From a bacterium (GTDB lineage: Bacteria > Patescibacteriota > Saccharimonadia > Saccharimonadales > SZUA-47), in contig JAUIBQ010000001.1 in NCBI GenBank assembly GCA_030427445.1, positions 25,782-89,781 on the forward strand: 64,000 nt of DNA, read 5' to 3'. The translations under genes and the position numbers were made by a program. Below the pieces are notes generated by a model. It saw only the letters and a program-made list of their open reading frames with translations, had not been told where the DNA came from and made no database searches. The number at the start of each line of letters is the position of its first letter. Position 1 is the stretch's first letter. This document shows, one piece after another, positions 39,415-64,000 of the stretch.

Positions 39415-39463
39415 ATTTCACGCCATTTAGTGCTTTAACTCTTTACAATTTCACGCCATTTTA
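39415..39463 (+). repeat. Rep-A copy
   Basis: ATTTCACGCCATTTAGTGCTTTAACTCTTTACAATTTCACGCCATTTTA. Confidence 0.8.
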
Positions 39464-39477
39464 GATATATACCTATC

Positions 39478-42782: not shown

Positions 42783-42830
42783 AAAATGGCGTGAAATCCT
42801 AAGGAGTTAAAATGCCAAATGGCGTGAAAT
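42783..42830 (-). repeat. Rep-A copy (inverted orientation) between convergent genes
   Basis: AAAATGGCGTGAAATCCTAAGGAGTTAAAATGCCAAATGGCGTGAAAT. Confidence 0.85.
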
Positions 42831-44862: not shown

Positions 44863-45668
44863 TGGCAACTAAACCAACTAAGCTTCGACACATCCTTGAT
44901 ACCGTCCTGATCATTAAAAGATTAGCCGTCATCGCATTGATTGCATTTACTGCGTTCATTCTTTACCGACTACTCATAAACACTGTCTTGAGTCGCAGTG
45001 TTATATTTGGGATCATTACGCTCTGGGCGTTCAGCGCTTACATCGTACTCCCACGCATCCATCGATTACTCACAAAGATTTACATCCCAAATTATTTTAT
45101 CGGCAGGACAAGAACTGGCGACGGCCTACTTGGCGACCCGGTAAATCTTGCTTTACTTGGAAGTAAAAGAGACATTGAGCAAGCTATGAAGAAAGCTGGG
45201 TGGATAGAGGCAGATCAGCTAAACGCTACATCGACCTGGAAAATGATTACTGCTTCACTGAGGCGTAAAAGCTACCCCAACGCACCTGTGAGCTCTCTCT
45301 ATTTATTCGGGAACAAACAAGACCTAGCGTTCCAGCAAGAAGTAAATGGCTCGACTAAGTCACGCCATCACGTCCGCTTTTGGAAAGTTCCTAGAGGCTG
45401 GTATTTACCAGGAGGGTATACGTGCGACTACCTTGGGGCTGCAACGTTTGACACTGCAGTAGGGGTGTCGCTCTATACTTTTCAAGTCACACATCGAATC
45501 GAAGAAGACACCGACATTGAACGCGACTATGTCATACAATCACTTACCGATTCAAATAAAAAAATTACAGTCGATATAGTCAAAAACTTTACGACTGGAT
45601 ATCATTCAAGAAATGGCGGTGGAGACACTATAAAAACGGATGGTAGCCTCCCGTTCATACATCTTTAG
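44862..45668 (+). CDS. LssY C-terminal domain protein
   Basis: N-terminal TM helices. GDPVNLALLGSKRDIEQAMKKAGW block typical of LssY_C. Confidence 0.65.
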   Translation: MATKPTKLRHILDTVLIIKRLAVIALIAFTAFILYRLLINTVLSRSVIFGIITLWAFSAYIVLPRIHRLLTKIYIPNYFIGRTRTGDGLLGDPVNLALLGSKRDIEQAMKKAGWIEADQLNATSTWKMITASLRRKSYPNAPVSSLYLFGNKQDLAFQQEVNGSTKSRHHVRFWKVPRGWYLPGGYTCDYLGAATFDTAVGVSLYTFQVTHRIEEDTDIERDYVIQSLTDSNKKITVDIVKNFTTGYHSRNGGGDTIKTDGSLPFIHL

Positions 45669-46045
45669 TTAGATTCTGTTGGTGCGCCTACATACTTCGC
45701 CTGTCCCCAACCCAAGTACATATACCCAAAATAAGAGAACAGGATGAGTACGACAGCCATGCCAAACCCTTTACCGAATGCTTTAGCTATTCCCAATGAA
45801 ATTAATGCAATGCTCACGACATTCACGAGTGGGATAAACAAACAGATAAAAACCCACAGTGGTTGTCCTGCGATTTTAGTGAGTATGTAGTTGTTATAAA
45901 CAGGTATTAGAGACTTCCACCCTTCGTAACCCGCCTTCACGAACATCTGCCAAAGAGATAACACACCGATTAACCATATGATTATCCCTACCGTAAAAAT
46001 ATAACTTGCTGTTGAGAGATCCATTGTCCCACTCCTTTTTTTCAA
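45665..46045 (-). CDS. DUF5684-like small membrane protein
   Basis: WQMFVKAGYEGWKSLIPVYNNYILTKIAGQPLW pattern. Confidence 0.6.
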   Translation of the reverse strand: MKKRSGTMDLSTASYIFTVGIIIWLIGVLSLWQMFVKAGYEGWKSLIPVYNNYILTKIAGQPLWVFICLFIPLVNVVSIALISLGIAKAFGKGFGMAVVLILFSYFGYMYLGWGQAKYVGAPTESN

Positions 46046-46137
46046 TTATTACTGAAAGTATAACAGATAACAGTTTATAAGCTTTGTAATAGAACTTTTT
46101 GTGGTATATTTTAAGCATAAAAGAGGGAGCTACACTA

Positions 46138-46560
46138 ATGGCAACAACATCAAACAACCAAATCGAAACACCAACCTATCTCAGATTCTCAAAAGTCATC
46201 GTCTGGTTAATGTATTTTTGGGTGATGATAGGCGTAATCGCACTGAGCTTGCGGGTGTTTTTACTACTATTCTCAGCTAACACTTCTGCAGGATTCGCGA
46301 ACTTTGTCATGAATGTTTCCGGAGATTATCTGCAACCATTCAGAGGTATCTTTGACTATCGTCCAGTAGGCGAAACAGGTTATTTGGATGTATCGGCGAT
46401 TTTCGCAATCATTATTTATCTATTTATCGTCTGGGGCTTTAAGGCATTAATTGACTACGTGCAAAACAAGATAGACACAAGCATGCATGAACAGAAAATG
46501 GAGCGCCTACGCCAAGAGCTTTCGACTGCTCGCAAGGGAAAAACAACTGCGAAAAAGTAG
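46138..46560 (+). CDS. YggT-like membrane protein
   Basis: AGAGGGAG SD before the ATG at 46138. Two TM helices flank the DYLQPFRGIF-type loop. Confidence 0.5.
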   Translation: MATTSNNQIETPTYLRFSKVIVWLMYFWVMIGVIALSLRVFLLLFSANTSAGFANFVMNVSGDYLQPFRGIFDYRPVGETGYLDVSAIFAIIIYLFIVWGFKALIDYVQNKIDTSMHEQKMERLRQELSTARKGKTTAKK

Positions 46561-48822: not shown

Positions 48823-49337
48823 AACTCATTTTTATCTATGGACCACCAGCAGTAGGAAAGCTTACGGTAGCAGAAAAACTGTCAGAACTTTCTGGTATAC
48901 CGTTGTTTCACAACCACGTAACACGAGATCTAGTACAGGATATATATGGAGATGGTATAGCTGAGAATTATGATTTAGTTAGAGATATCAGAAACCTGGT
49001 CCTCTCATACTGTGCCAAAAACGACACAGATTTAATATTTACATACGTATATGGAGGAGCGGAAGATGACGAGCATGTGCGTAAAATGAAGTCTAGCGTC
49101 GAAGACAATGGTGGTGAAGCCGTCTTCGTTGAGCTAACAGCTGAGCGTGCAGACCTCCTCGTAAGAGTGAACGGTGAATCGCGTAAACGCTACAAGAAGC
49201 TACATGATGCAAAAATTTTAGAGAAACTAACAGAAGACATGGAGAAGTTCTCAATACCTTTCATCGAAAAAACTGCTATAGATACGAGCAAATATTCATC
49301 TGACGAAGTAGCGAAAATGATACAGGAATTATTATAA
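48819..49337 (+). CDS. P-loop ATPase/kinase-like protein
   Basis: GPPAVGKLT Walker A at the N-terminus. The start overlaps the previous stop. Confidence 0.6.
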   Translation: MKLIFIYGPPAVGKLTVAEKLSELSGIPLFHNHVTRDLVQDIYGDGIAENYDLVRDIRNLVLSYCAKNDTDLIFTYVYGGAEDDEHVRKMKSSVEDNGGEAVFVELTAERADLLVRVNGESRKRYKKLHDAKILEKLTEDMEKFSIPFIEKTAIDTSKYSSDEVAKMIQELL

Positions 49338-49384
49338 TTCCACGCCGTTTGGCGTTTTAACACCTTAGAGTTTCACTTCATTTA
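49338..49384 (+). repeat. Rep-A copy
   Basis: TTCCACGCCGTTTGGCGTTTTAACACCTTAGAGTTTCACTTCATTT, immediately after the stop codon. Confidence 0.85.
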
Positions 49385-49420
49385 TATATTCATTAATTCA
49401 TCATACTACTAACGTATACT

Positions 49421-50149
49421 GTGAGTATGGATAAAATTGAGCATCATATTTCACATACCTACCAACCAACAAACACTACATGCAGTCAGACTGCACTATC
49501 TATACTACTTAGTCATTACGAAAACATCATCGAGCCATTAGAGCTTGAAGAGAGAATACCACAGACAACGAACGAGCTCGGTGAAAAACAAGGTACTATC
49601 AATCAGCACCTTGCAACATGGTGCTTATCTCAGGGCTTCAATGTCACTATGTATACCTTTGACTGCCAAATTATCGACCAGTCATGGTCAACACTGGAGA
49701 AAGATGAGTTAATTACAAGGCTAAAGCTTCGTAAAGATGGGTGGGTAGTACCTGGCATGGGTGAGCAATGGACAATAGAATACACGCAGGGCTATATAGA
49801 TTTCATGGAAGCAGGTGGTGAACTACATATACAGCAGGCAGTTACGTCTGATTTACTATACGAACTACTGCAAAAAGGGCCACTTCTTCCTTGTGTCAGT
49901 TTTAGTACACTATACGGCTCAGGCAGGACTGTGCTAACTCAAGAAGAAGATACCCCAGATGACATCAATGGCCGCGCGACAAATCACTCAATCGTTATTT
50001 ATGGCAACGATGAAAATGGTAACTTTCTAGTTGCTGATCCTTTTAAGAAACCAGGAAAGCTTGTTATTGATAAAGAACGAATGCTAGCTGCAATATCAAC
50101 TGCTCAAATAGAGTGCGATAATCTGCTTTTTCAACTTTATAAGAAGTAG
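49421..50149 (+). CDS. papain-like (C39-like) cysteine peptidase domain protein
   Basis: QPTNTTCSQTALSILL (candidate catalytic Cys) and a downstream NHSIVIYG (candidate His). The assignment rests on pattern only. Confidence 0.5.
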   Translation: MSMDKIEHHISHTYQPTNTTCSQTALSILLSHYENIIEPLELEERIPQTTNELGEKQGTINQHLATWCLSQGFNVTMYTFDCQIIDQSWSTLEKDELITRLKLRKDGWVVPGMGEQWTIEYTQGYIDFMEAGGELHIQQAVTSDLLYELLQKGPLLPCVSFSTLYGSGRTVLTQEEDTPDDINGRATNHSIVIYGNDENGNFLVADPFKKPGKLVIDKERMLAAISTAQIECDNLLFQLYKK

Positions 50150-50150
50150 T

Positions 50151-50198
50151 TATCCACGCCGTTTGGTGTTTTAACTCCTTAGGATTTCACCGCATTTT
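50151..50198 (+). repeat. Rep-A copy
   Basis: TATCCACGCCGTTTGGTGTTTTAACTCCTTAGGATTTCACCGCATTTT. Confidence 0.85.
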
Positions 50199-50445
50199 GA
50201 TAATTCTGGTAAGAGATTTCTCTGTAGGCACGTGCCAATTTGTCGATTTCCTGCATGAGTAGAAAAGCAGTTGAGAAGATACTTGGTAGCCCAGCAAAAT
50301 ACCGCTCCTGATTAGCAAATGTTATTAATGACAGCTTATTTCCGTTCAACCATATGTCGTGGAGGTTGTTTTGTTTTAGGGCATTCACTATTTTGGGTAT
50401 AAAGACTACAATCGATTTCACATAAGACACCGGTATTATTGACAC
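50179..50445 (-). CDS. doubtful hypothetical ORF (88 aa)
   Basis: The last six codons are supplied by the Rep-A copy. No motif. Confidence 0.3.
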   Translation of the reverse strand: MSIIPVSYVKSIVVFIPKIVNALKQNNLHDIWLNGNKLSLITFANQERYFAGLPSIFSTAFLLMQEIDKLARAYREISYQNYQNAVKS

Positions 50446-53137: not shown

Positions 53138-53410
53138 GGTTTAATGAGAAATAATAATACCTGAAGCATTGCACAAAGCTAAACACACTTTAATTTTCAC
53201 TACTATAGTATTTATTGCTTACAGATAGTACTACTCTCACATGAAGTAGCTCGCCGGGTATATTACAGCTGGAGTAGTAGACTTACTTTCTAGTATGGCA
53301 ATGCATAGACTTGTGAGGGCATACATTAAAAAAACAAATCGAATTCAGTCCCTGAATGCCCACCACCTAAGGCCGAGGAAGATTTATCAGAAGGGAGTGT
53401 AACTCTCTAA

Positions 53411-53460
53411 ATCCACGCCGTTTGGCAATTTAACTCCTCAGGAGTTCACATCATTTTTTT
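53411..53460 (+). repeat. Rep-A copy (left edge of island)
   Basis: ATCCACGCCGTTTGGCAATTTAACTCCTCAGGAGTTCACATCATTTTTTT. Confidence 0.8.
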
Positions 53461-53562
53461 AGATATTTATTTCGATGTCCTTTGTGCGACAAAGGACCAA
53501 AACATGGGGGTCCGGAGCATCTGTCTCTATAAAATTGTTGTTGAGAAGTACATGGCGACAAA

Positions 53563-53690
53563 AAGGCGTTTCACTTCCTCCTAGTTTTGCTCTTTAACAT
53601 GTATTTTCAACGAACAATTATTATCGGGTCAGATACTCTTTAAACCCCCATGCCCCAGGAAGTTGTGCAAATACATAATTTGCTATTTAA
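53563..53690 (+). repeat. partial family-B element (GGCGTTTCACTTCCTCC block and palindrome P1)
   Basis: GGCGTTTCACTTCCTCC recurs inverted at ~60705. GCAAATACATAATTTGC lies at 53667-53683. Confidence 0.65.
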
Positions 53691-53694
53691 TGAT

Positions 53695-53846
53695 GATCCT
53701 CAGAAGTTACTCTGAAGCTAAAACCTACTTTTCATCGGTATGAAGTCTTTATGCTGCAAAAACCACTCAAATATCAGGTATTAATAATTATCAAATATTT
53801 TCCAGTCAGCCTGGTAATTCTCACTGAACAAGGATAGTATGAAGCC
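53695..53846 (+). promoter_or_regulatory. island upstream module copy 1 (two hairpins plus TGGTAA-N17-TAGTAT promoter)
   Basis: CCTCAGAAGTTACTCTGAAG and TTCATCGGTATGAA hairpins. TGGTAA at 53812-53817, TAGTAT at 53835-53840, ATG 6 nt later. Confidence 0.55.
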
Positions 53847-54260
53847 ATGAATATGTATAAATCAAAATACAAACAACTACCGGGAACTTCGTATAGTGAA
53901 TTGATACGCTTGGCACGTAGTGAATATCATACAATTCAAAAAAGAACCCCTCGTCGCGTACCATATATTAGATCTGCGTATTTCACTAAAGACAAGATAT
54001 TTGTGAATAATTTCTGGGATCACTTGTCGCAAAAATCACCAAGAGATAGAGTAAGAAGGCTAAAACTCTACATAGCAGCTATAGATACTCTAAGAAATTC
54101 TAAAATACCACCAGAATCAATGCAAAACCCTAATAATCGAGAAGAGACGTTGCATCGTTTTTCCAGTATCACTGATGATGAGATTACATTTTATGTGCAA
54201 GTTAAAGAGAATAAGCGAACAAATAGAAAAGAATTTATTTCTTGTTTTCCTGCAAAATAA
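53847..54260 (+). CDS. hypothetical basic protein (137 aa), island cargo
   Basis: ORF directly after module copy 1. Blocks FWDHLSQKSPRDRVRRLKLY and FYVQVKENKRTNRKEFISCFP. I cannot name a family. Confidence 0.6.
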   Translation: MNMYKSKYKQLPGTSYSELIRLARSEYHTIQKRTPRRVPYIRSAYFTKDKIFVNNFWDHLSQKSPRDRVRRLKLYIAAIDTLRNSKIPPESMQNPNNREETLHRFSSITDDEITFYVQVKENKRTNRKEFISCFPAK

Positions 54261-54380
54261 AAAAGGCCTTCCGCTGTGTAGTTCAAAGACTACTGCCGAA
54301 GGTCTTAAATTAAATATAGCATAAGCTATTAGTTTATGTCAATATTTTGTCAATAGTTTATTTAATTGCCTTACTGCGGC

Positions 54381-54524
54381 TGGTCCTCAGAAATTATCCT
54401 GAAGCTATATCTTACTTTTCATCGGTATGAAGTCTTTATGATGATGAAACTCCAGTGTCAGTTATTAAATATCAAATATCTACCAACCTGGTAATTCTCG
54501 CTTTTAAGGGGTAGTATGTAAGCA
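54381..54524 (+). promoter_or_regulatory. island upstream module copy 2
   Basis: Same two hairpins. TGGTAA at 54489-54494, TAGTAT at 54512-54517, ATG 7 nt later. Confidence 0.55.
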
Positions 54525-54872
54525 ATGAGTGACTTGCAGAAATTACAAGAAAGAGTACTGAGGTTCCGGGATGAGCGAGACTGGAAGCAATTTCATAATC
54601 CTAAAGACTTAGCGATCTCACTTCTGGCGGAAGCTGCGGAGCTTCTAGACGAATTTAAGTGGAAAGATGAAAAACAGATAGCGCAACATCTCAGAGAAAA
54701 CAAAGAATCAGTATCAGATGAAGTCATGGATGTGCTTTACAATACATTATTAATTGCAGCAGACCTTGATATCGATATCTCAAAAGAATTTGAACGTAAA
54801 ATGCAGTCTAACGAAGCCAAGTATCCGATCGAGAAGTCGTCTGGAAATAATAAGAAATATACTGAGATATAG
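54525..54872 (+). CDS. MazG-like nucleoside triphosphate pyrophosphohydrolase
   Basis: RFRDERDWKQFHNPKDLAISLLAEAAELLDEFKWK and DVLYNTLLIAADLDIDI are the all-alpha MazG/dCTPase-type blocks (EExxE/D region). Confidence 0.85.
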   Translation: MSDLQKLQERVLRFRDERDWKQFHNPKDLAISLLAEAAELLDEFKWKDEKQIAQHLRENKESVSDEVMDVLYNTLLIAADLDIDISKEFERKMQSNEAKYPIEKSSGNNKKYTEI

Positions 54873-54900
54873 TTTCTGTCTTAGTTGTTCATCGATTGTA

Positions 54901-54948
54901 ATTTCACGCCGTTTGGTGTTTTAACTCCTTAGAGTTTCACTCCATTTT
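54901..54948 (+). repeat. Rep-A copy
   Basis: ATTTCACGCCGTTTGGTGTTTTAACTCCTTAGAGTTTCACTCCATTTT. Confidence 0.85.
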
Positions 54949-55051
54949 AGAATAATTCATCCGATAGAGTCTTAGTCCTGTAAACCATTTATAGAATTGC
55001 AAGGTGTTTTATTATATAATACTAAGCCATGAAAAGGAGCCTTACATATTA

Positions 55052-55528
55052 ATGAGCGAAGTAACCAATTTACACACTAACAAAACAGGATTCCCAGTGC
55101 AGTTTCCAGTTGAAACAATGAAGGACCTTGATGCTATATCTGCAATTGGCACATTTAATGACGGAGTTTATCAACCATTAGGATTCACTAAAATAATGGA
55201 TCAGATTATTGGACAGTACTTAAGTAGTGGACATGAAGGTCCCCTAGTCACTCACGATGAGGATACTGAGACTATTCAACGAGCAGTAAGATTAAGCGAT
55301 CAACATTTGGCTACTATGGAGGAAAGATTCCCTGGCATGCAACGCTATAGCCTAGTTGCTGGAGTAGCACTAACAGCGACACTACACTATAGCCACACAT
55401 GTATAGACTACGGAGAAAAACCACCGAAGATACATACCATTAGTTTAGGTCAAGAACCGGGAAGCTTTGCTGAATTATTAAGACACAAGCCGTTTCTTGG
55501 ATTCAAGCCACAAGATATAAAAGAATAA
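55052..55528 (+). CDS. hypothetical protein (158 aa), island cargo
   Basis: AAGGAG SD about 13 nt upstream of the ATG at 55052 (MSEVTNLHTN...). No motif. Confidence 0.55.
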   Translation: MSEVTNLHTNKTGFPVQFPVETMKDLDAISAIGTFNDGVYQPLGFTKIMDQIIGQYLSSGHEGPLVTHDEDTETIQRAVRLSDQHLATMEERFPGMQRYSLVAGVALTATLHYSHTCIDYGEKPPKIHTISLGQEPGSFAELLRHKPFLGFKPQDIKE

Positions 55529-55541
55529 AACTTCAATCAGA

Positions 55542-55590
55542 ACTTCACGCCGTTTGATATTATAACTCTTTAGGTTTTCACTTCATTTTA
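55542..55590 (+). repeat. Rep-A copy
   Basis: ACTTCACGCCGTTTGATATTATAACTCTTTAGGTTTTCACTTCATTTTA. Confidence 0.8.
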
Positions 55591-55599
55591 TTTTATAGT

Positions 55600-55892
55600 G
55601 CGTTTCTGCGGGTGGCTTCGCCCCGCACCCATGACTTACTTTTACCTACAGGTGCAAAAGTAAGCAAAAACCCCGCACCCAGTCATAAAAACACTATTGA
55701 GATAATAACCAAATACTACCGTGCCTTGCGGAACGCAAGCGGTCCAGAAAGTTTCTTTAGCTGATGTTTCTGGACTGGTCCTCGGCAATGACTCGCTAGT
55801 ATTTACTCACTTCCTCATCGGTTTTTATGAAGGGTAATTAAATACAAACCCGGACTGCAGGAATCTGTGCAAATACATAATTTGCTATTTTA
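55600..55892 (+). repeat. family-B element, full copy B1 (GC-rich hairpin core, degenerate module motif, palindrome P2)
   Basis: Core TGCGGGTGGCTTCGCCCCGCACCCATGACTTACTTTTACCTACAGGTGCAAAAGTAAGCAAAAACCCCGCACCC. Hairpin CTTGCG-GAA-CGCAAG. GCAAATACATAATTTGC at 55869-55885. Confidence 0.75.
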
Positions 55893-55895
55893 TGA

Positions 55896-56147
55896 TGGAC
55901 CTCAGAAATTATTCTGAAGCTAAAAACTTACTTTTCATCGGTATGAAGTCTTTATGCTGGTAATGCTAATCAAATATCAAGTATCACCACGGGTGATGTT
56001 GTCGATGACGACAACTTGCTCGTCGACTTCTTCTTCAGTCCGCGGATCCGACTTCTTAGATCCAAATAGCCAAGAAAATAATCCCATACCCCAATTATAA
56101 TCCCAAACAGAGTGGAAAAATATCCCGAACAGGGGTAGTATTAATTT
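55896..56147 (+). promoter_or_regulatory. island upstream module copy 3 (with a ~120-bp insertion)
   Basis: Same two hairpins at 55896-55958. TGGAAA at 56113-56118, TAGTAT at 56136-56141, ATG 6 nt later. Confidence 0.55.
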
Positions 56148-56792
56148 ATGAAAATGTCAGATAGACGTAAAGACCTCAGGCCAAGAGAAAAACTACAGGC
56201 TAAAGGGGTACGAAGTTTATCAGACTATGAACTCTTAATGGCCGTGATTGGAAGCGGAACACAATATGCGGATGTGTCGAAACTTGCACGAGACACTCAA
56301 AAACTTATCAAAGAAAAAGGCAGTAACCTTTCATATGAAGACTTACTAACCATTTCGAGCTTAGGCCCAGCAAAAGCATCAACCATAATGGCAGGATTTG
56401 AACTATGGCGCAGACAGTTTGAAGTAACGGAGCGACCAATTATTGACACACCGGAAAAAGCCGTCGAACAACTTACAGATATTCGTGACAAAAAACAAGA
56501 ATACTTCGTGTGTCTAACGCTTGATGGTGCAAATCGCCTAATCGCTAAGCGCATTATCACGATAGGTACGCTCACTGCTAGCCTTGTCCATCCTCGTGAA
56601 GTTTTCGCAGAAGCAATAACTGATCGAGCAGCAAGCATCATCGTTGCCCATAATCATCCCAGCGGCAATTTAAATCCATCATATGATGATATAGAGATAA
56701 CGAAACAGTTATCTCATGCTGGAAAGATTTTAGACATCAGATTGAATAGCCATGTTATCGTTTCGAACAATAAGTGGAGTGAGTTTGTTTAA
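56148..56792 (+). CDS. radC: RadC-like JAB/MPN domain protein
   Basis: N-terminal LSDYELLMAVIGSGT. JAMM motif HNHPSGNLNPSYDDIEITKQL. Confidence 0.88.
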   Translation: MKMSDRRKDLRPREKLQAKGVRSLSDYELLMAVIGSGTQYADVSKLARDTQKLIKEKGSNLSYEDLLTISSLGPAKASTIMAGFELWRRQFEVTERPIIDTPEKAVEQLTDIRDKKQEYFVCLTLDGANRLIAKRIITIGTLTASLVHPREVFAEAITDRAASIIVAHNHPSGNLNPSYDDIEITKQLSHAGKILDIRLNSHVIVSNNKWSEFV

Positions 56793-56793
56793 A

Positions 56794-58179
56794 ATGCATG
56801 AAATATATTTAACAAAAGAAGAGGTTCTTAAAAAAGCTGAGACTGCTTTAAATAAATCACTTCGTGAAGTTATATCTAAAGAATCAACCAAATTAATTGA
56901 AGAACAGATTGGGTACTATGGATTAAGGCGTAAAGGTCTACTAGGCGATATTACTGAAAAATATTTTTTTAATATACACCCCGGTAATGTTAGTAACCCA
57001 GATTTCGCAGTTGCTGAAGTTGAACTAAAAACCACTCCGCTAAAAAAACATAAATCATTAAAGTATGTGTCTAAAGAACGTCTGGTTTTTTCGATGATAA
57101 ATTATGAAAAAATTATCGAAGAAACTTGGGAGAAGAGCTCTTTTTTAAATAAAAATAAATCCGTTCTATTGATGTTCTATCTGTGGCTGGACAACCAAAG
57201 TATATTAGACTACGAATTTAAGTTTATTCACCTACTCAACCTTTTAGAAAACATATCCAGCGAAGATGCGCTTCAAATCAAGAAAGACTGGGAATTTATT
57301 GTAAACAAAATTAGACGAGGTGAGGCTCATTTACTTTCTGAAGGTGACACGTATTACTTGGGTGCATGTACTAAGGCTACGAACAGTCGAGTCGTTAGAG
57401 AACAGCCAGCAAATTCGATTCCTGCCAAGCCAAGAGCATTTTCTTTCAAACAGCAATACATGAACTACATTGTCCAGTCCAGACTACTTAGTAAAAGCAC
57501 AGATAAAGATTCGATATTTGCTAACGCTCAACATAAAGCTACAATCGAGGAGACAATACACAAAAAATTTACTCCATTCTTAGGAAAAACAGATAATGAA
57601 ATACTAAGTTCATTAGAGTCAAAATTATTGAAAAAGTCTAAGAGTTATAAAAGGCTAATTGTTAACCAAATACTAGGTGTTACATCGAACAAGATAGAGG
57701 AATTTGAAAAAGCAAATATCACATTAAGAGTGCTAACTCTTGAACACACAGGAACATTGAAAGAGTCTATATCTTTTCCAGCGTTTGATTACAAAGATTT
57801 AATAACTCAGGTATGGTATGACGATAAGGATGAGATAATGTCTGATTTTCATTCACAATTAGAGACCAAGAAATTTTTGTTCGTAGTCTTCCAGAAGCAA
57901 AAAAACATGAAAGACATAACTTTAAAAAAGGTTGCTTTTTGGAATTTTCCCATGAATGACTTAAAAGAGGCAGAAAAAGTATGGAGAAAGACCATCGAAT
58001 GCATTAATGAAGGGGAATACGAAAGTTTACCTAAAATCAAAGATAGTAGAGTTGCACACGTTCGACCACATGCAAAAAATGCTCATGATACACTTGAAAC
58101 ACCACAAAAAACACAAGAAATTAAGCGTAGTTTCTGGTTGAATGCTAAATACATAGAAAATGTACTAAAAAATCTATAG
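56794..58179 (+). CDS. Sau3AI/MutH-family type II restriction endonuclease (GATC-type predicted)
   Basis: KGLLGDITEKYFF...NPDFAVAEVELKTTPLKK...SKERLVFSMINYEK is the MutH/Sau3AI catalytic D...E.K region. ~460-aa two-domain size. The ATG at 56794 lies 2 nt after the radC stop. Confidence 0.82.
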   Translation: MHEIYLTKEEVLKKAETALNKSLREVISKESTKLIEEQIGYYGLRRKGLLGDITEKYFFNIHPGNVSNPDFAVAEVELKTTPLKKHKSLKYVSKERLVFSMINYEKIIEETWEKSSFLNKNKSVLLMFYLWLDNQSILDYEFKFIHLLNLLENISSEDALQIKKDWEFIVNKIRRGEAHLLSEGDTYYLGACTKATNSRVVREQPANSIPAKPRAFSFKQQYMNYIVQSRLLSKSTDKDSIFANAQHKATIEETIHKKFTPFLGKTDNEILSSLESKLLKKSKSYKRLIVNQILGVTSNKIEEFEKANITLRVLTLEHTGTLKESISFPAFDYKDLITQVWYDDKDEIMSDFHSQLETKKFLFVVFQKQKNMKDITLKKVAFWNFPMNDLKEAEKVWRKTIECINEGEYESLPKIKDSRVAHVRPHAKNAHDTLETPQKTQEIKRSFWLNAKYIENVLKNL

Positions 58180-58221
58180 TGCGGCATTGATCGAAATAGT
58201 TTTATTTGTTAATATTAAATA

Positions 58222-59481
58222 ATGAAAAATATTAAAGTTGTTGAATTATTTGCAGGTGTAGGGGGATTTCGCTTAGGCTTAGACGCGGCAAGCAATTACA
58301 AGACACAATTCAAGACAGTTTGGGCTAGCCAGTGGGAGCCTTCTACAAAGAAACAAGACGCTGCTGATATTTATGCTGCAAGGTTTGGCAAAAAGGGTTT
58401 GAGCGCTGAAAACATAGAAGATGTGATTGAAAATAACTTCGAATCTATTCCGAATCACGATTTACTAGTTGGTGGTTTTCCATGCCAAGACTATTCTGTA
58501 GCGGCGACTCTAAAAAACTCAAAGGGTCTAATTGGCAAAAAGGGTGTCTTGTTCTGGTCAATTTACTCAATACTAAAGAAAAAAGGTGAAAAAGCACCTA
58601 AGTACCTATTCCTAGAAAATGTAGATAGACTCCTGAAATCTCCGGCCAAACAACGCGGCAAAGACTTCGCCGTAATGTTGGCAGCATTGTCTGATTTGGG
58701 ATATGCAATTGAGTGGCGTGTTATTAACGCGGCAGACTACGGGTTCCCGCAACGTCGAAGGAGGATTTTTATTCTTGGCTATAAAGTTGGCACAAAACTT
58801 TATAAGGAACTTTTGCAATCTTCACAGGACACCACCAACTGGATTACAAAGGATGGTGTCTTGGCGGACGCCTTCCCTATATCCAATGAGTTGAGTAGAG
58901 TGAATAAGTTCGATATTAAAGGTACTCCGAAAACCATAACTGAAGAATTCTCATCAAATTCTCCAAAGATTAGCCCATTTGAAAATTCGGGCATTATGGT
59001 TAGTCGTCATATCATTACCGCCAAATCGACACCTAACTATGAAGGTAACATTACTAAACTGCGTAGTGTGTTGATTAGAGAAAATCAAGTACCAGAAGAA
59101 TACTTCATCGATGAGGAGCAGGTAGAGAAGTGGAAATACCTTAAAGGCGCTAAAAGTGAGGAAAGAACTGCAGCCAGTGGTCACGTTTATCATTACTCAG
59201 AAGGTCCAATGACCTTCCCAGACAATCTCGACAAGCCATCAAGAACCATAATTACTGGGGAGGGTGGCGCAGGTCCTTCTAGATTTAAGCATGTCGTAAA
59301 GACTAAAAGTGGTAAATACAGAAGGCTAACACCTATCGAGCTAGAGAGACTGGATATGTTTCCAGACAATCATACTAAACTAGAAGGTGTATCTGATATT
59401 CGACGTGCATTTATCTGTGGCAATGCATTGGTAGTTGGTGCAATCACTAAAGTGGGTGAATCTTTAGTAAAAAAAATTTAG
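58222..59481 (+). CDS. dcm: DNA (cytosine-5)-methyltransferase
   Basis: Motif I ELFAGVGGF, motif IV GGFPCQDYS, motif VI ENV, motif VIII QRRRRIFI, motif X GNALVV. Confidence 0.92.
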   Translation: MKNIKVVELFAGVGGFRLGLDAASNYKTQFKTVWASQWEPSTKKQDAADIYAARFGKKGLSAENIEDVIENNFESIPNHDLLVGGFPCQDYSVAATLKNSKGLIGKKGVLFWSIYSILKKKGEKAPKYLFLENVDRLLKSPAKQRGKDFAVMLAALSDLGYAIEWRVINAADYGFPQRRRRIFILGYKVGTKLYKELLQSSQDTTNWITKDGVLADAFPISNELSRVNKFDIKGTPKTITEEFSSNSPKISPFENSGIMVSRHIITAKSTPNYEGNITKLRSVLIRENQVPEEYFIDEEQVEKWKYLKGAKSEERTAASGHVYHYSEGPMTFPDNLDKPSRTIITGEGGAGPSRFKHVVKTKSGKYRRLTPIELERLDMFPDNHTKLEGVSDIRRAFICGNALVVGAITKVGESLVKKI

Positions 59482-59715
59482 AACCTTTATCTAAAGAAGT
59501 TTTACGCCTTCAGTTTTAGGCAACTCTTCAATTATGAGTTCTTTTATTTCCTCTCTAGACATCGTATCAACCAGCTTCACACCAGCCACCATGTTTATTA
59601 TTTTGACAACTTTATATTTTAATTAATTATTATTTGGATATTTTCCGATTCTAGAAATCCTATCTCCGAAGTTCAACGACTTTATAAATACTTTCTTCGA
59701 GAAAGTATAAACAAT

Positions 59716-59887
59716 TATTAGCAAATAATGTATTTGCACAGATTCCTAGGGTCCTGGGATTAATTGAATCACCCTTCATAAAAACCCTAGTAGTAGACTC
59801 TGTCACTATAGGGCGTAACCGATGAGAGAGTGAGTAAATACTATCGAATCATCGCCGAGATAATCAAATAGCAAATTATGTATTTGA
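59716..59887 (-). repeat. family-B 3' module, inverted copy right of the R-M genes (palindromes P3, P4)
   Basis: The reverse complement matches 55783-55892, except for a ~33-bp insertion. GCAAATAATGTATTTGC at 59721-59737 and GCAAATTATGTATTTGA at 59871-59887. Confidence 0.75.
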
Positions 59888-59945
59888 ACGGTTTATCTTA
59901 TCTATTATTAAGACTCCACAAGCTACAGAGTGTTATTATTAATTC

Positions 59946-60596
59946 ATGCTAACGGCTTTTCTATTTGTTCTGTTGTTCTTTTTATTTATTGTTCTTTTAA
60001 TTGCCTCAACAGTATTACAGAGTAGATCATTCATAGGAAAAAGTGGCGAAAACTTCATAGCGCATAAACTACAAAGGCTCGATCAGTCAAAGTACAAGGT
60101 ACTTAATAATATTGTGCTTTCTTCTAATGGCAATACAGACACTACTCAGATAGACCATATCGTAGTTTCAGTTTACGGCATTTTTTGCATTGAAACTAAA
60201 ATGCATAAAGGTTGGATCTTTGGAAGTGTACATAAAAAATATTGGACACAAGTACTCTACAAAAAGAAATACAGATTGTATAACCCGTTGAGACAAAATT
60301 ATGCACACATAAAATCTTTAGAATTTCTGCTAGGAGAGAAAATTAAATCTCCTATAATTTCATTAGTCGCTTTCCCTAGGGCATCAAGACTTAAAATAGA
60401 TGACCTCAAATTGATATCTAATGGCCAGGGGACTATAGCGAATCTACTTAAATACCAGGATGTTATTTATGATCAGACAGAAATCCAAACAATATACGAA
60501 GTGATAAAAAACTCTTCTATCAAAGATAAAGAAATAGATGCGGAGCACATAAGACAGATAAGAAACATTACTAATCTTTCATCAAATAATAACTAA
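59946..60596 (+). CDS. NERD (nuclease-related domain) protein with N-terminal TM helix
   Basis: GKSGENFIAHKL...IDHIVVSVYGIFCIETKMHKGWIFG...KYWTQ is the NERD D/E-x-K pattern. Confidence 0.8.
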   Translation: MLTAFLFVLLFFLFIVLLIASTVLQSRSFIGKSGENFIAHKLQRLDQSKYKVLNNIVLSSNGNTDTTQIDHIVVSVYGIFCIETKMHKGWIFGSVHKKYWTQVLYKKKYRLYNPLRQNYAHIKSLEFLLGEKIKSPIISLVAFPRASRLKIDDLKLISNGQGTIANLLKYQDVIYDQTEIQTIYEVIKNSSIKDKEIDAEHIRQIRNITNLSSNNN

Positions 60597-60600
60597 AATA

Positions 60601-60935
60601 CACGACAGCAAATTATGTATTTGTACAGATTCCTCAGGGTCCGGGATATAAAAGATTTTGCTTTCGACGATATTCGTTCGTAAAAATCACAAGAATTGCA
60701 GCAGCTCTTGGAGGAAGTGAAACGCCTAGCGTAAGCCTTGTGTTGTTTTACAACGAATTCATAGCCAAGCAATAATCCCAATCCCGGTGGTTTGCTACTT
60801 TGACATGCAAAGTAGTTCAAAAAATATTATTAAAAATGATTTGTTTTTTGTACTATCTCAATAGTGTTTTTATGACCGGGTGCGGCTCTTTTGCTTACTT
60901 TTGCACCTGCAGCTAAAAGTACCGCTGGTCAAGGG
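60601..60935 (-). repeat. family-B fragments, inverted (palindrome P5, GGAGGAAGTGAAACGCC block, GC-rich core remnant)
   Basis: GCAAATTATGTATTTGT at 60608-60624. CTCAATAGTGTTTTTATGACCGGGTGCGG...CTTACTTTTGCACCTGCAGCTAAAAGTA at ~60858-60920 is the reverse complement of the B1 core. Confidence 0.7.
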
Positions 60936-61121
60936 TGAGAAATCCCAGCGATATTTCGCAAGGCAGTCAACACCTGAGAACTTGTTTCATAGCAGTTGTT
61001 GCGGGGTCGCGGAACGTGACGGCATTGCTCTTTATATAAAATAAATCTCGGCGCTTTGGTACTTTGGCGTACAAAGTAAGATTCAGTGTACAATAGTACT
61101 AATGCTAAACACCACACATAC

Positions 61122-62345
61122 ATGGCGAAGCTAAAACGAACAATCACTTGGAAGATGCTGACGCTGTACGGGCTCGGCAATATTTTGGGCGCTGGCATCT
61201 ACGTCCTCATCGGCGAAGTCGCACAAGAAGCAGGCGACGCGCTGTTATGGTCATTCGTAGGAGCGGGAATAGTCGCGAGCTTCACCGCCATCACGTACGG
61301 GGCACTATCAAGTGAATATCCTGTCAGTGCTGGCGCTGCCATCTACACCGAACGAGCCTTCAAATCAAAAAAATGGAGTACGATCATCGGCCTTGCGATG
61401 GCGTTAACGGCAATTGTATCTGCAAGCGCTCTACTAAACGGCTTCAATAACTATTTCCAGGAGCTGCTGAGCAACCTTGGCGTTACTGTGAGTATACCGT
61501 CACCAGTAGTCATATTGACTCTACTAGCTCTACTCGGTTGGCTCGCACTACGAGGCATTGGTGAATCTACAAAATTTGCAGTCATCCTAACGCTGCTTGA
61601 GACGGGCGGACTACTCATGATTATCGGAGCAGCCACGCTCTACGGTAATCCAGTCAGTGCGCTAGAGACATCAGTTTCATCGCTCGGGTCTGTAACACCG
61701 TTAGCCATAGTGCTCGGATCATTTGTGGCATTCTATGCATTCATCGGATTCGAAGACATGGTGAACGTCGCAGAAGAGGTAAAACAACCAAAGAAGCAGA
61801 TGAAACGAGGTATGTTATCAGCGCTCAGCATTGCTGTACTCCTCTATATAGCAACAGTCATCGCGTCACTCGCCATCTTGCCAAGCAGTGAACTGGCAGC
61901 GAGCAGTGCACCGCTCGCAGACGTATGGCAAGCGGCCACGAATAGCAGCCTCCCAATAATCACGATCATCGGCATCATTGCCATTACGAACGGAGCCTTA
62001 ATCGGTATTATTACTGCGTCACGAATCCTCTACGGACTCGCAAGGGAAGGGTGGATTACAAAGACATTCGCACAGATCTCTCCAAAAACAAATACACCAA
62101 CCTATGCGAGCTACACGATACTTGCGCTCATCGCCGTTGCTTCTGTAGCATTACCTCTCGGCACGCTGGCACAAATTACAAGCTTCATTCTGCTGCTTAT
62201 ATTCACCTTTGTTCAGATATCCGCTATCAAGCTCAAGCGGCAACACGGCTTACCGCAACTGAAGTACTACATTCCGATACTCGGCCTCATAGCCAACGTT
62301 GGCGTCATCGCTGTACAAATCCTCGCTTGGCTACACATCGTATAG
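61122..62345 (+). CDS. APC-superfamily amino acid permease
   Basis: MAKLKRTITWKMLTLYGLGNILGAGIYVLIGEVA start and about 11-12 TM helices. Visibly GC-richer than the neighbouring island genes. Confidence 0.85.
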   Translation: MAKLKRTITWKMLTLYGLGNILGAGIYVLIGEVAQEAGDALLWSFVGAGIVASFTAITYGALSSEYPVSAGAAIYTERAFKSKKWSTIIGLAMALTAIVSASALLNGFNNYFQELLSNLGVTVSIPSPVVILTLLALLGWLALRGIGESTKFAVILTLLETGGLLMIIGAATLYGNPVSALETSVSSLGSVTPLAIVLGSFVAFYAFIGFEDMVNVAEEVKQPKKQMKRGMLSALSIAVLLYIATVIASLAILPSSELAASSAPLADVWQAATNSSLPIITIIGIIAITNGALIGIITASRILYGLAREGWITKTFAQISPKTNTPTYASYTILALIAVASVALPLGTLAQITSFILLLIFTFVQISAIKLKRQHGLPQLKYYIPILGLIANVGVIAVQILAWLHIV

Positions 62346-62460
62346 CACAGCCCGGGGTCTGGGGCATACAAGCATTGATGCCGATTCTGGTGTTCTTTCT
62401 CCATCAGTTTGGATCCTGATTGGTGAGATTGGAAATCGGTAGATTTCCGAGAACATCCGC

Positions 62461-62757
62461 ATTTCCGGGGGTATGGGGTTAAGGTATTTTACTCATGCAA
62501 ATAATATTTGCGTTTATCTCGCTCTAGCAAAACGCTTGCAGTGTGATGCAGAAATGAGCGAATCATTGCTGAGGACCAGCCCAAAAAAAGTAACTAAAAT
62601 AGCTTTTTGGGCCGCCCCTTGCGGGCGTTCCGCAAGCACGTTCATTTCAAGCCATCGGTGCAAAGCTGTTTTGATAGTCGCGAGCGGGGGTTTTTGCTTA
62701 CTTTTGGACCTGCAGGTAAAAGTAAGTCATGGGTGCAGGGGCGAAGCCGCCCGCATC
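62461..62757 (-). repeat. family-B element, copy B2, inverted relative to B1 (palindrome P6)
   Basis: The reverse complement carries TGCGGGCGGCTTCGCCCCTGCACCCATGACTTACTTTTACCTGCAGGTCCAAAAGTAAGCAAAAACCCCCG, CTTGCGG-AACGC-CCGCAAG and CTGGTCCTCAGCAATGATTCGCT. GCAAATAATATTTGC at 62497-62511. Confidence 0.75.
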
Positions 62758-62764
62758 AATAAAT

Positions 62765-62812
62765 TAAATGGTGTGAAAATATAAGGAGTTAAAATATCAA
62801 ACGGCGTGAATA
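62765..62812 (-). repeat. Rep-A copy (inverted; right edge of island)
   Basis: AAATGGTGTGAAAATATAAGGAGTTAAAATATCAAACGGCGTGAATA. Confidence 0.8.
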
Positions 62813-62873
62813 TTTCGTTTAAAAGCTCGTGCAGTAAATATAGTTTAAATTAAAGTAAAATTATTTAACAATA

Positions 62874-62903
62874 TTGACACTGATACAATTTATCTGTTAT
62901 AAT
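62874..62903 (+). promoter_or_regulatory. consensus promoter for the 62915 ORF
   Basis: TTGACA, 18-nt spacer, TATAAT. The ATG lies 12 nt downstream. Confidence 0.6.
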
Positions 62904-62914
62904 AGCTTTTCGAT

Positions 62915-64000
62915 ATGAAATCCTATACTTACGACTTTGACACAGGAACCGTACCTGGACTAGAAGACAGAAAACATGAAGTAGATCTTCTAAATCTGGG
63001 CGATATAGATAACATGATTATCGAGAGTCTCGGTGCAGCAGCAGCTTATACCGATCGCAGTGATACTATTAGTGAGTGTTTAGAAGCGTCAGAAAGACTT
63101 TCTGGCTTACTATATGTTGTAGAAGAATTTGTAGACGAAGTAGACGATGGAATGGTAGAGCGAGTGGAGCCAGTCGCATCCTCGAGGGTTACAACTCATC
63201 GTAATATGCTAGGAACTCATAGCAAGATACTTTCCGGTTTAAATGGGGATAGAGACTGGTATTATATGGGGGATCAAGAGAATGTAAGGGAGCTTGCGGA
63301 ATCAACGATTACGCATGTTGATCCTACTAGCATAGTTTCGAGATCATGGGTTGATTTATTAGTGGGCTCAGAAGAACTCGATACACTTTTATCGACAACC
63401 TACTTCATGCACCATCTAGAAAAGATGAAGTGTAGTGCTAGAAGAATAAGTACATTGGTACCGGGTAAGTTTACTGATGTTCTCCAGTCTATCCATGACG
63501 AAGCACCTGTATTTAAAATGACAGCTACGGGCACTAGACCATTAGATCACGATGAAGTGTTAGGTTTACTGCATTTTAACGAAAGAGAGAGTTGGAAGGA
63601 CAGCGCAACTCAAGATAAAATTGCCGTGCATTCACGAAACCTTCTAAACTTAATTATCGAATTATCAGAAAATCCGGACAAAATATACACTGAAGGGCTG
63701 CATCACAGTAATCAACAACGAACAGAGCTGCTCGTGCATGGCTTCGTAGATGACACTATTGCTGAAAGACATAGCGAATACTTTACACCACTCTCAGGTG
63801 CAAAAAAAAGAAAGAAGCGACTTTCACAATATGCAAAACGTCAAAAAGAAATTGATGGATTGCTGCCATCTACAAAGCCAGAGAGAGTAGAAAAGATAAC
63901 CGTAGAAGAGCCAGAGCGACCCGATAGCGGTTCAGCAGAAAATGAAAATATTAGGGAAATCGAGTTAGTGTTTCCTTGGATTGGTGAAGATCCAAAGCCC
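62915..64000 (+). CDS. hypothetical protein, 3'-truncated by the window end (>=362 aa)
   Basis: Hand translation from ATG 62915 (MKSYTYDFDTGTVPGLEDRK...) runs to the last base without a stop. Absent from the ORF track, probably because it is open-ended. Confidence 0.6.
   Translation, partial: MKSYTYDFDTGTVPGLEDRKHEVDLLNLGDIDNMIIESLGAAAAYTDRSDTISECLEASERLSGLLYVVEEFVDEVDDGMVERVEPVASSRVTTHRNMLGTHSKILSGLNGDRDWYYMGDQENVRELAESTITHVDPTSIVSRSWVDLLVGSEELDTLLSTTYFMHHLEKMKCSARRISTLVPGKFTDVLQSIHDEAPVFKMTATGTRPLDHDEVLGLLHFNERESWKDSATQDKIAVHSRNLLNLIIELSENPDKIYTEGLHHSNQQRTELLVHGFVDDTIAERHSEYFTPLSGAKKRKKRLSQYAKRQKEIDGLLPSTKPERVEKITVEEPERPDSGSAENENIREIELVFPWIGEDPKP

Follow-up and report, generated by a model that had tools for sequence, protein, structure and literature searches.

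Inverted repeats around a restriction-modification operon in a Saccharibacteria genome: probable copies of a structured element in a defence-gene hotspot

Investigating a stretch of 64,000 nucleotides of a Saccharibacteria genome (the window), we found that the inverted repeats on either side of a radC-restriction-modification (R-M) operon are best explained, with a probability of roughly 0.6 for the explanation as a whole, as oppositely oriented copies of one structured element, the left one full length but divergent, the right one a truncated piece of a split copy. According to this explanation the locus would be a hotspot in which defence genes replace one another as alleles and copies of a new candidate structured RNA are interspersed; the operon would then be neither a mobile nor a flipping cassette. 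The gene content proposed in the first-pass annotation (radC, a Sau3AI-like endonuclease and dcm) was confirmed by domain matches, and the promoter-like module described upstream of radC is present and repeated in the window:

56148-56792, plus strand: radC-like gene with a JAB domain (Pfam PF04002, 2.5e-38)
56752-58179, plus strand: type II restriction endonuclease of the Sau3AI family with a MutH domain (MutH/Sau3AI-like, 3.3e-27)
58222-59481, plus strand: C5 cytosine DNA methyltransferase (C5 DNA methylase domain, 1.4e-60)
55897-56147, plus strand: upstream module common to three genes, with other copies at 53694-53846 and 54381-54524
59648-59715, no strand assigned: segment F, part of the conserved frame, immediately inward of the right arm (78% identity to 7436-7503 of contig L031)
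59946-60596, plus strand: NERD-domain gene between two minus-strand element copies
61122-62345, plus strand: amino-acid permease, a vertically inherited Saccharibacteria gene serving as the anchor of the locus

The inverted repeats are real. They had been noted as a ~115-150-bp pair with inward-facing, palindrome-containing ends and a ~33-bp interruption of the right copy, and gapped alignment of the two arms gave 93 matches, 13 mismatches, a 34-nt insertion in the right arm and two 1-nt gaps (88% identity overall, with the 34-nt indel), the palindromic ends (TGTGCAAATACATWATTTGCT) pointing inward as claimed. A repeat search resolved two inverted blocks, 55781-55823 with 59817-59859 (43 nt, 88%) and 55820-55887 with 59719-59786 (68 nt, 84%). 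Chance is excluded as the cause of the recurrence by shuffling: a 21-mer core with up to three mismatches has five matches in the window, at 53664(+), 55866(+), 59720(-), 59870(-) and 60607(-), against none in 100 shuffles. Both arms thus exist, but the pair is not unique and the repeat is larger than described, the left block 55544-55887 having its inverted partner in two pieces, 62810-62557 (203/274) and 59859-59719, so that the right arm represents only the distal piece. Direct repeats at 59845-59859 and 62557-62571 enclose the 2,697-bp segment splitting this partner.

55781-55887, plus strand: left inverted-repeat arm, the 3' part of element copy 2 (apical remnant, rod 3' strand, linker and core hairpin); nhmmer 55778-55889, E=1e-9; covariance-model (CM) fragment 55829-55890, 40 bits
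59719-59859, minus strand: right inverted-repeat arm, a 5'-truncated element copy without P1 and the rod 5' strand and with the 34-nt insertion; CM 59716-59815, 45 bits; fold without rod, z=-2.3
59845-59859, plus strand: 15-nt imperfect direct repeat CGAATCATCGCCGAG, 13/15 identical to its partner at 62557-62571

Altogether, at least six copies or fragments of the element lie within 53.4-62.8 kb, on both strands; the CM search recovered two full canonical copies plus fragments, all of them in 53.4-60.9 kb, and nothing in the rest of the window.

53478-53688, plus strand: element copy 1, canonical and full length (CM R1 187.9 bits, E=4.5e-41; fold z=-6.4)
55633-55892, plus strand: element copy 2, full length but divergent (fold z=-3.25, 0/200 shuffles; alignment)
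59870-59890, minus strand: solitary core hairpin immediately outside the right arm (CM 25 bits)
60603-60814, minus strand: canonical full-length copy in the interval between the NERD and permease genes (CM R1 164.9 bits; nhmmer E=7e-45)
60851-60923, minus strand: variant 5'-part fragment (hairpin and CAAAAG...CACTATTGAG), 88-90% identical to 55637-55713
62350-62440, minus strand: core-less fragment of the element 3' strand (CAGAAUCGGC...CCCCAGACCCC), adjoining the permease stop codon
62557-62810, minus strand: proximal piece of the split partner, inverted relative to 55544-55797 (203/274 identical) and comprising the C repeat and the variant 5' half of the element

Copy 2 consists of a P1 variant hairpin (55635-55665), CAAAAAC, a rod (TCATAAAAAC/GUUUUUAUGA and UGAG/CUCA) and the core at 55866-55886; its stem correspondences were assigned by eye, and the predicted fold has the same architecture. 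Internal insertions occur at fixed places, as the 34 nt in the right arm and ~60 nt in the third copy of contig L006. Besides this element, the genome contains a second, shorter intergenic repeat family (family C) in nine copies.

The complete element measures ~210-260 nt and is composed of a 5' hairpin, the motif CAAAAC directly before a stem base of GGGGGU/ACCCCC, an imperfect rod of ~45 bp whose tip varies, then a C-rich linker and finally the core hairpin GCAAAT-ACATA-ATTTGC, a 6-5-6 palindrome 3' of whose TTTGCT the bases differ between copies. The tip often carries CUUCCUCC, which in most copies is exposed near the tip of the predicted fold. RNAalifold predicted 50 pairs from eight sequences, 20 of them with compensatory changes; 92.3% of the cells are paired compared with 42-54% when the strands are slid, and none of 500 shuffles was as good. 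In an alignment of 11 sequences, which had been fitted to the model, 25 of the 50 pairs change on both sides (75 cells) and 92.4% of the cells are paired versus 36-50% slid. Two neighbouring positions have conserved G-U pairs (9/11 and 8/11 sequences), which render the fold strand-specific, and CM scores amount to 165-226 bits on the forward and 17-32 bits on the reverse strand, although covariation together with such a G-T wobble pattern would equally fit single-stranded DNA. Several unpaired motifs are conserved as well (CAAAAC, CUAUCUG, AUCGG, the C-runs and CUUCCUCC). The core is absent from both copies in L031, in which the rod is retained, and from the 62350-62440 fragment, whose counterpart is kept at both ends of that contig.

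Homologues were found in two Saccharibacteria MAGs (L001, L004) and in the metagenome contigs L006, L009, L011 (two copies), L014, L017, L021 and L031; the collection scans were queried with the 21-mer core only, and each of the three GTDB genomes matched contains just one exact match to it. Searching Rfam at the gathering score returned no match in the window; up to E=5 there was none over 53300-56200, and over 59400-63000 the sole match was a chance snoRNA inside the NERD gene (E=2.4). The element is a candidate for a Saccharibacteria-specific structured family without an Rfam match. Most likely it would be a small RNA made from the strand running from the 5' hairpin to the core, even though scans of the element for promoter and terminator consensus stayed at background and yielded no convincing candidate.

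Comparison with related contigs places the arms in the frame of the locus. In the contig L031, with a permease of 85% identity, this position is taken by a Type I R-M system, likewise bracketed by element copies, in the order plus-strand 3' element fragment, promoter motif, hsdM-S-R, segment F, minus-strand element, permease; segment F again adjoins an element copy, with different cargo on its left side, and the contig ends inside the repeat, leaving the left boundary of the swapped segment outside the comparison. Since the element and the 68-bp segment F are kept there with other cargo, the arms belong to the locus and not to the cargo, and since a Type I R-M system fills the same slot in a close relative, the operon is replaceable cargo of a defence hotspot. 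The suggestion to look for the same repeats around other genes was fruitful in two further contigs, L011 and L006, where the repeats flank cell-envelope genes and three direct copies separate modules of one to three genes, an arrangement that looks like a cassette array. At least three lineages have the element at the borders of modules in their variable regions.

We therefore favour replacement within a conserved frame. The element copies would mark where gene modules meet in a variable region beside the conserved permease gene (a region containing, in this genome, the radC and Sau3AI-type R-M genes, the NERD gene, a MazG-like gene and small genes of no known function), and the R-M swap probably proceeded by homologous recombination within the frame. 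Saccharibacteria are ultra-small epibiotic bacteria and naturally competent, which makes such recombination plausible. The inverted layout and the mosaic of partial copies would be scars of past duplication, insertion and recombination among copies, and they do not look like working transposon ends or a working switch. The operon itself would be expressed from the common promoter-like module TGGWAA-N17-TAGTAT, which ends in front of radC as TGGAAA-N17-TAGTAT-N6-ATG (56113-56150) and also precedes hsdM in L031; its location 6-7 nt before the ATG would result in a leaderless mRNA. Allelic substitution of R-M systems at one locus has been described (Furuta, Abe and Kobayashi 2010, PMC2853133), and our case resembles it in the non-homologous systems occupying one slot (Type II, Sau3AI-like, here and Type I in L031), in the conserved flanks and in the flanking repeats. 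It differs in that the frame holds structured element copies and a common promoter-like module, and in that the relatives compared are metagenome contigs instead of complete genomes.

The first-pass annotation had suggested that the operon is a mobilisable or invertible cassette, perhaps of the MITE-pair or composite type, the flipping of which could uncouple the genes from their promoter module. Inverted arms of ~110-140 nt with inward palindromic ends would suit such a unit, the left copy's mosaic likeness to three right-hand copies could trace old inversions, and R-M units between inverted repeats are documented: in those of X. oryzae and N. gonorrhoeae the long inverted repeats occur only in the unit, are missing from the genome with the empty site and are bounded by 8-bp target duplications (PMC2853133). 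The operon shares with them the imperfect inverted repeats and the lack of a transposase inside, but departs from them in all three respects. The arms are multi-copy (five cores in the window) and are found in L031, together with segment F, around other cargo, so that the operon lacks both transposon-like features used in that study, and the proposed check for target-site duplications revealed no exact direct repeat of at least 5 bp in the +/-6 bp around each plausible outer boundary. Being diverged members of a multi-copy structured family, one of them 5'-truncated, the arms are not matched transposon ends; MITEs and composite elements require such ends and near-identical whole units, while here we see 88% identity, a 34-nt indel and diverged copies with different tips. 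Inversion fares no better: the arms share no perfect run above 20 nt, a poor substrate for homologous inversion, and no invertase was found nearby. In two contigs from independent samples, L023 and L024, the operon is connected to the NERD gene in the window's orientation, with colinearity at the right junction and across the segment interior; both are consensus assemblies, in which minor variants would be invisible, and they do not span the left junction. Nor would an inversion uncouple the operon from its promoter module, which is located between the arms and would turn together with the genes. The earlier remark that no recombinase is encoded here agrees with a Pfam scan of 28 of the larger ORFs between 32 and 64 kb, in which domains of recombinases, integrases or transposases did not turn up; a few ORFs, 45665-46045 and 46099-46560 among them, were inspected by eye only. 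The transposon or invertible-cassette reading is thus largely refuted, and we regard it as very improbable.

Two further explanations concern the element rather than the operon, and we consider each of them unlikely, though clearly less so than a transposon. The copies might be passive or selfish palindromic repeats of the ERIC, BOX or BIME kind, propagated or maintained as DNA, whose influence on mRNA stability or termination would at most be incidental and which would not constitute a dedicated RNA gene. Like those repeats they are long imperfect palindromes (100-250 nt), intergenic, on both strands, modular, RNA-foldable and partly truncated or mosaic, with internal insertions at fixed places, and family C demonstrates that this genome does carry intergenic repeats. 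Against this speak the compensatory changes and deep conservation seen among distant Saccharibacteria, the conserved unpaired motifs and strand-specific G-U pairs, the single exact core match in each matched GTDB genome and the clustering of the copies in one 10-kb region. Alternatively, they might act as recombination sites in cis, either as folded single-stranded DNA similar to attC or with the palindromic core serving a tyrosine recombinase, Xer-type or another, that acts in trans; modules such as the operon would then be captured, excised or inverted at the cores. The element-gene-element arrays of L011/L006 would fit, as would the 129-bp mini-module between the cores at 59720 and 59870, the NERD module between two cores, the variable sequence left of a core with a constant right half (the 59870 copy and the third L006 copy), the attC-like variable tip and the occurrence of one promoter module right after the element in front of different genes. 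The window and L031 both have an R-M system with inverted copies on its two sides; this could indicate that the copies participate in the exchange. With attC/CALIN arrays and Acinetobacter pdif modules the locus has in common structured or palindromic sites punctuating modules that contain no recombinase and, as in pdif, inverse site orientation. An integron attC site is nevertheless a poor match, the stem base being GGGGGU/ACCCCC, RYYYAAC/GTTRRRY (R''/R') boxes not being seen there by eye, the G-U strand being the coding strand (the reverse of the integron convention), no IntI having been found among the larger ORFs scanned and the element, at 210-260 nt against 57-141 nt, being far longer and more conserved in sequence. 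A pdif site of the Xer/dif type (28 bp, two 11-bp arms around a 6-bp centre) was likewise rejected given the 6-5-6 core, the unconserved bases beyond it and the rods lacking a core; in addition, the modules possess their own promoter, the swapped cargo stops ~68 bp short of the core at its right end, and the larger ORFs scanned in 32-64 kb include no integrase or recombinase. Slightly less probable still is an integrase-free Saccharibacteria cassette platform, made up of the rods and the TGGWAA-N17-TAGTAT module, in which the rods, as folded DNA or through their RNA, would govern how defence and cell-surface gene modules are captured, exchanged and inverted, the R-M operon being one cassette.

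By itself, the R-M swap follows a known pattern in which the defence genes of a hotspot replace each other as alleles, and the finding as originally posed is mostly ordinary. The more interesting by-product is a conserved Saccharibacteria structured element, supported by covariation and without an Rfam match. One possible role is that of a regulatory RNA, such as an anti-Shine-Dalgarno RNA associated with competence or defence genes, and another is that of a boundary element aiding module exchange in naturally competent cells; either role, if true, would provide a testable handle on how reduced genomes regulate or reshuffle accessory genes. To our knowledge, non-coding RNAs and mechanisms of genome plasticity in Saccharibacteria are little described. 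Multi-copy families of small RNAs with anti-Shine-Dalgarno loops, such as the streptococcal csRNAs, are paralogous structured RNAs of 100-250 nt. The element would resemble them in its several paralogous structured candidates and in the conserved CUUCCUCC exposed near the tip of most copies, but its rod is far longer and truncated fragments occur among the copies.

The radC and R-M trio is also present in the contigs L028 and L029, and the element is absent around the R-M homologues in L028-L030. The nearest relatives of the restriction endonuclease are only 73% identical, all taxon-named ones belonging to a CPR group or to an unclassified bacterium, and the GC content of the R-M region is 0.368, compared with 0.41-0.43 in most of the remaining window.

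The inverted repeat that the first-pass annotation placed around the restriction-modification (R-M) operon is borne out by the sequence of 55.5-60.2 kb and by a repeat search, which returned two arm pairs, 55781-55823 with 59817-59859 (43 nt, 88% complementary) and 55820-55887 with 59719-59786 (68 nt, 84% complementary). Aligned with gaps, the arms show 93 matches, 13 mismatches and two 1-nt gaps; the right copy carries a 34-nt insertion, and the longest unbroken identity between them is 20 nt. Their palindromic ends (TGTGCAAATACATWATTTGCT) face inward, as had been described. Between the arms lie the genes for a RadC-like JAB protein, an endonuclease of the MutH/Sau3AI family (its closest named relatives bear a Sau3AI-family type II annotation) and a C5 cytosine methyltransferase. 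The pair thus exists, but it is neither unique nor as small as reported: its 21-nt core hairpin occurs at five sites in the window with at most three mismatches, against 0 in 100 shuffles, and the left arm is part of a block spanning 55544-55887. Flank alignment showed that the core closes, on the 3' side, a larger conserved unit, which consists, from 5' to 3', of a P1 hairpin, the motif CAAAAC, a long imperfect rod (GGGGGU.../...ACCCCC), a C-rich linker and the core hairpin. The covariance model of this element (R1) matched at five places, two of them canonical full-length copies and the other three fragments, and nowhere else in the 64 kb.

Repeat copies and promoter-like motifs in the window
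53664 (+), 55866 (+), 59720 (-), 59870 (-), 60607 (-): core sites from the 21-mer scan
53478-53688 (+): full canonical element copy, 187.9 bits with R1
60603-60814 (-): full canonical element copy, 164.9 bits with R1
59716-59815 (-): R1 fragment
55829-55890 (+): R1 fragment
59866-59916 (-): R1 fragment
55633-55892: divergent full-length copy holding the left arm
62350-62440: core-less 3'-strand fragment adjoining the permease stop codon
62810-62557: inverted partner of the left block, piece one, identical at 203 of 274 positions
59859-59719: inverted partner of the left block, piece two, the right arm
60921-60847: third matching piece, against 55637-55713 (68 of 77 positions)
53812-53849: promoter-like motif directly 5' of a gene for a 137-aa protein
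54489-54527: promoter-like motif directly 5' of a MazG-like gene
56113-56150: promoter-like motif directly 5' of radC
17199-17246, 42783-42830, 62752-62812 (all -): C repeat, a second family of ~50-60 nt
39415-39470, 49335-49398, 50149-50212, 53408-53471, 54899-54962, 55540-55603 (all +): C repeat

A self-comparison of 49-64 kb revealed that the inverted partner of the left block is split into two pieces, which overlap by 17 nt in left-hand coordinates and are separated by 2,697 bp containing a solitary core, a NERD gene, a canonical element copy and the permease gene. This segment is flanked by a 15-nt imperfect direct repeat, CGAATCATYGCYGAG (13/15), at 59845-59859 and 62557-62571. Insertion of the 2.7-kb segment into an inverted copy may account for the pattern, as may recombination among copies; likewise, the direct repeat could mark an old insertion with target duplication or be a product of inter-copy recombination. 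The divergent copy at 55633-55892 has the canonical architecture with other stems (TCATAAAAAC/GUUUUUAUGA; UGAG/CUCA), the stem correspondences being drawn by eye, and its fold z-score is -3.25 compared with -6.4 for a canonical copy. The right arm, preceded by a solitary core, lacks P1 as well as the entire 5' rod strand and therefore cannot form the rod. Interleaved with the element copies are two other repeat families, an upstream module and the C repeat. The latter, with nine intergenic copies across the window, mostly directly 3' of genes and in three cases directly upstream of a rod element, has two TTCACGCCRTTT half-sites ~31 nt apart flanking AACTCCTTAG, and may act as a terminator-like element or be bound by a protein.

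The fold of the element is supported by covariation. Applied to eight sequences, RNAalifold yielded 50 pairs, of which 20 show compensatory changes; 92.3% of cells pair, sliding the partners lowers this to 42-54%, and none of 500 shuffles reached the observed values. With eleven sequences, whose alignment was fitted to the covariance model and hence favours the structure, double-sided changes occur at 25 of the 50 pairs (75 cells), and the paired fraction is 92.4% of cells, as opposed to 36-50% for the slid controls. Of two neighbouring conserved G-U pairs, one is kept in 9/11 and the other in 8/11 sequences, and the model scores 165-226 bits on the forward and 17-32 bits on the reverse strand; the fold is therefore that of one strand. 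Searching Rfam at the repeats gave no match at gathering score, nor did relaxing the E-value produce one. The rod tip is variable and holds AAGGCGNUNNNCUUCCUCC in most copies, for example at 53563-53583, 60708-60728 (-) and 55803-55815, and also in L001, L004, L006, L011, L021 and L031 (contigs of other genomes and metagenomes); the complementarity of CUUCCUCC to the Shine-Dalgarno sequence hints at an anti-SD regulatory RNA. Two coding readings were rejected by eye: a small ORF from the core GTG (MQIHNLL...) has a GTA start in two copies and varies in length and C-terminus, and the opposite-strand AGGAGG of the tip motif lacks a start codon at usable distance. Scans for sigma-70 promoters (30 against 27.3 expected) and intrinsic terminators (5 against 6.6 expected) stayed at background.

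Among one genome per species, the core 21-mer was found in three Candidatus Saccharibacteria MAGs (L001, L003 and L004), a Sphingobacterium match within a gene being taken as a chance hit. A metagenome scan added the contigs L006, L009, L011 (two copies), L014, L017 and L021; its other matches, in coding sequence or unrelated DNA, were regarded as chance. Both scans queried the core 21-mer only, so that core-less or diverged copies escape. Neither the core 21-mer nor the rod motif was found in IMG/VR viral contigs, and the phage and plasmid collections gave no blastn match to the element; a phage or plasmid origin is therefore unsupported. The contexts vary. On L011 and L006, overlapping contigs from two samples, whose joining is an inference and whose gene names were read from translations, three direct copies spaced 1.7-2.1 kb apart divide two gene modules, the first with an O-antigen-ligase-like gene, the second with GtrA-like, LexA-like and metallophosphoesterase-like genes. 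L004 has a single copy between dnaE and a convergent gene, and L014 a single copy with a divergent gene on one side and a convergent gene on the other. The element is therefore an independent unit, not consistently a 5' leader, and stands often, not always, beside accessory genes. As to the short LexA-like HTH protein encoded in one of the rod-bounded modules (L006, 548-1042), it is pure speculation to name it as a candidate binder of the palindromic core.

The operon and its surroundings have different relatives. Homologues of the endonuclease are absent between 100% and 73% identity, and those with a taxon name belong almost all to CPR groups. The radC-R-M trio (window 56148-59481) is also present on two further contigs of CPR origin, L028 (2653-5384) and L029 (1191-4525), which have coding sequence alone in common with the window and carry no element. 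There, with an endonuclease 73% identical to that of the window, the radC-like JAB gene again stands directly 5' of the Sau3AI-type endonuclease and C5 methylase genes; judging from this gene order, RadC appears to be a functional part of the R-M module. The GC content of the R-M region is 0.368, compared with 0.41-0.43 in most of the remaining window. Homologues of the permease are graded from 85% to about 45% identity; some are named Candidatus Saccharibacteria, and L001 shares its 531-kb contig with one of them, which makes the permease a resident gene. Together with the homologues of the element, they suggest that the window belongs to Saccharibacteria. On the contig with the 85% identical permease, L031, the slot is taken by a Type I R-M system (HsdM, HsdS, HsdR). 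In order, this contig has a plus-strand 3'-strand fragment of the element, a hairpin, TGGAAA-N17-TAGTAT-N6-ATG, the ATG being the hsdM start, and the remaining Type I genes with hsdR last. Next come segment F (68 bp, 78% identical to its window counterpart at 59648-59715), a core-less element copy on the minus strand (78 bits), the permease and a minus-strand 3'-strand fragment. Two different R-M systems thus occupy the same frame, each flanked by inverted element copies, and the right limit of the variable part is segment F, inside the right arm. The ends of this 9-kb contig (1-30 and 8971-9000) are identical 30-nt inverted repeats, and the orientation of the whole block is therefore ambiguous in that assembly. 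Farther permease relatives (L032, L034 and L035; permease 72-78% identical) show neither element nor synteny and so provide no empty site.

We consider the arms to be copies of a structured element, conserved but new, which is most likely a small RNA and punctuates a defence/accessory hotspot beside the permease, with the R-M operon as replaceable cargo and the inverted mosaic as a record of past duplication, insertion and inter-copy recombination; we give this reading a probability of about 60%. The element would be transcribed and have a regulatory role, and the operon would be exchanged by homologous recombination following natural transformation. That the elements are themselves the recombination sites of a cassette platform would fit the arrays and the inverted bracketing, but we regard it as unlikely, with no recombinase among the ORFs scanned and no attC or dif features, core-less copies on L031 and a cargo boundary away from the core. 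A dif-like reading of the core was dropped (6-5-6 palindrome, putative XerD arm not conserved, L031 copies without core), and an attC reading was set aside on account of box sequence, length and the lack of an integrase among the ORFs scanned. GC skew showed nothing indicative of a replication terminus. We are similarly doubtful that the elements are passive repeats of the ERIC/BOX kind.

The reading first proposed, a MITE pair, composite transposon or invertible switch, has become very improbable. No target-site duplication of at least 5 bp was found at any plausible boundary, and a Pfam scan of 28 of the larger ORFs in 32-64 kb revealed no recombinase, integrase or transposase. In transposon-like R-M units (Furuta, Abe and Kobayashi 2010; PMC2853133) the flanking repeats are unique to the unit, are missing from the other genome and come with an 8-bp duplication; the present locus shows none of these features. 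It resembles the allelic substitution of R-M systems at one locus described in the same paper. Two contigs from other samples, L023 (SRR34706595; window 55930-60665 with one mismatch, which most likely alters the methylase sequence) and L024 (ERR3428546; window 59127-62576, exact), are colinear with the window and connect operon and NERD gene in the same orientation, both being consensus assemblies with the left junction outside them. Nor would inversion uncouple the operon from its promoter-like module, as had been suggested, since the module lies inside the arms and would travel with the operon.

This "promoter module" is a real repeated unit. Its copies begin at 53694, 54381 and 55897, and the motif TGGWAA-N17-TAGTAT, with an ATG 6-7 nt on, occurs at just three sites in the window and at one on L031 (128-165), upstream of hsdM. 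The spacing from motif to ATG suggests leaderless transcripts, so that the genes may be expressed in this way from the shared module, and the presence of the motif at the module genes suggests that they share a regulator or sigma factor. The module copy at radC is longer by ~145 nt (55967-56112), a stretch with three short hairpins and two sites that contain GATC (GGATCC and AGATCC), on which the R-M system might act in regulation. Across the whole window GATC, the target to be expected for a Sau3AI-type enzyme, is only mildly depleted (observed/expected 0.70), and the depletion of CCGG (0.48) and GGCC (0.67) equals or exceeds it. Convergent with the methylase gene, a 33-codon ORF (MVAGVKLVDTMSREEIKELIIEELPKTEGVKLL; 59491-59592, -) was called by gene finders in two independent samples; Pfam gave no match to it, and L031 carries no homologue. 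Elsewhere in the window, the 3' end of tRNA-Gln and ~70 nt downstream are duplicated (40342-40429 and 41288-41375, 946 bp apart, 85% identity); the interval contains no convincing ORF and no Rfam match, and the duplication looks like an att-type scar left by a small element, integrated or decayed.
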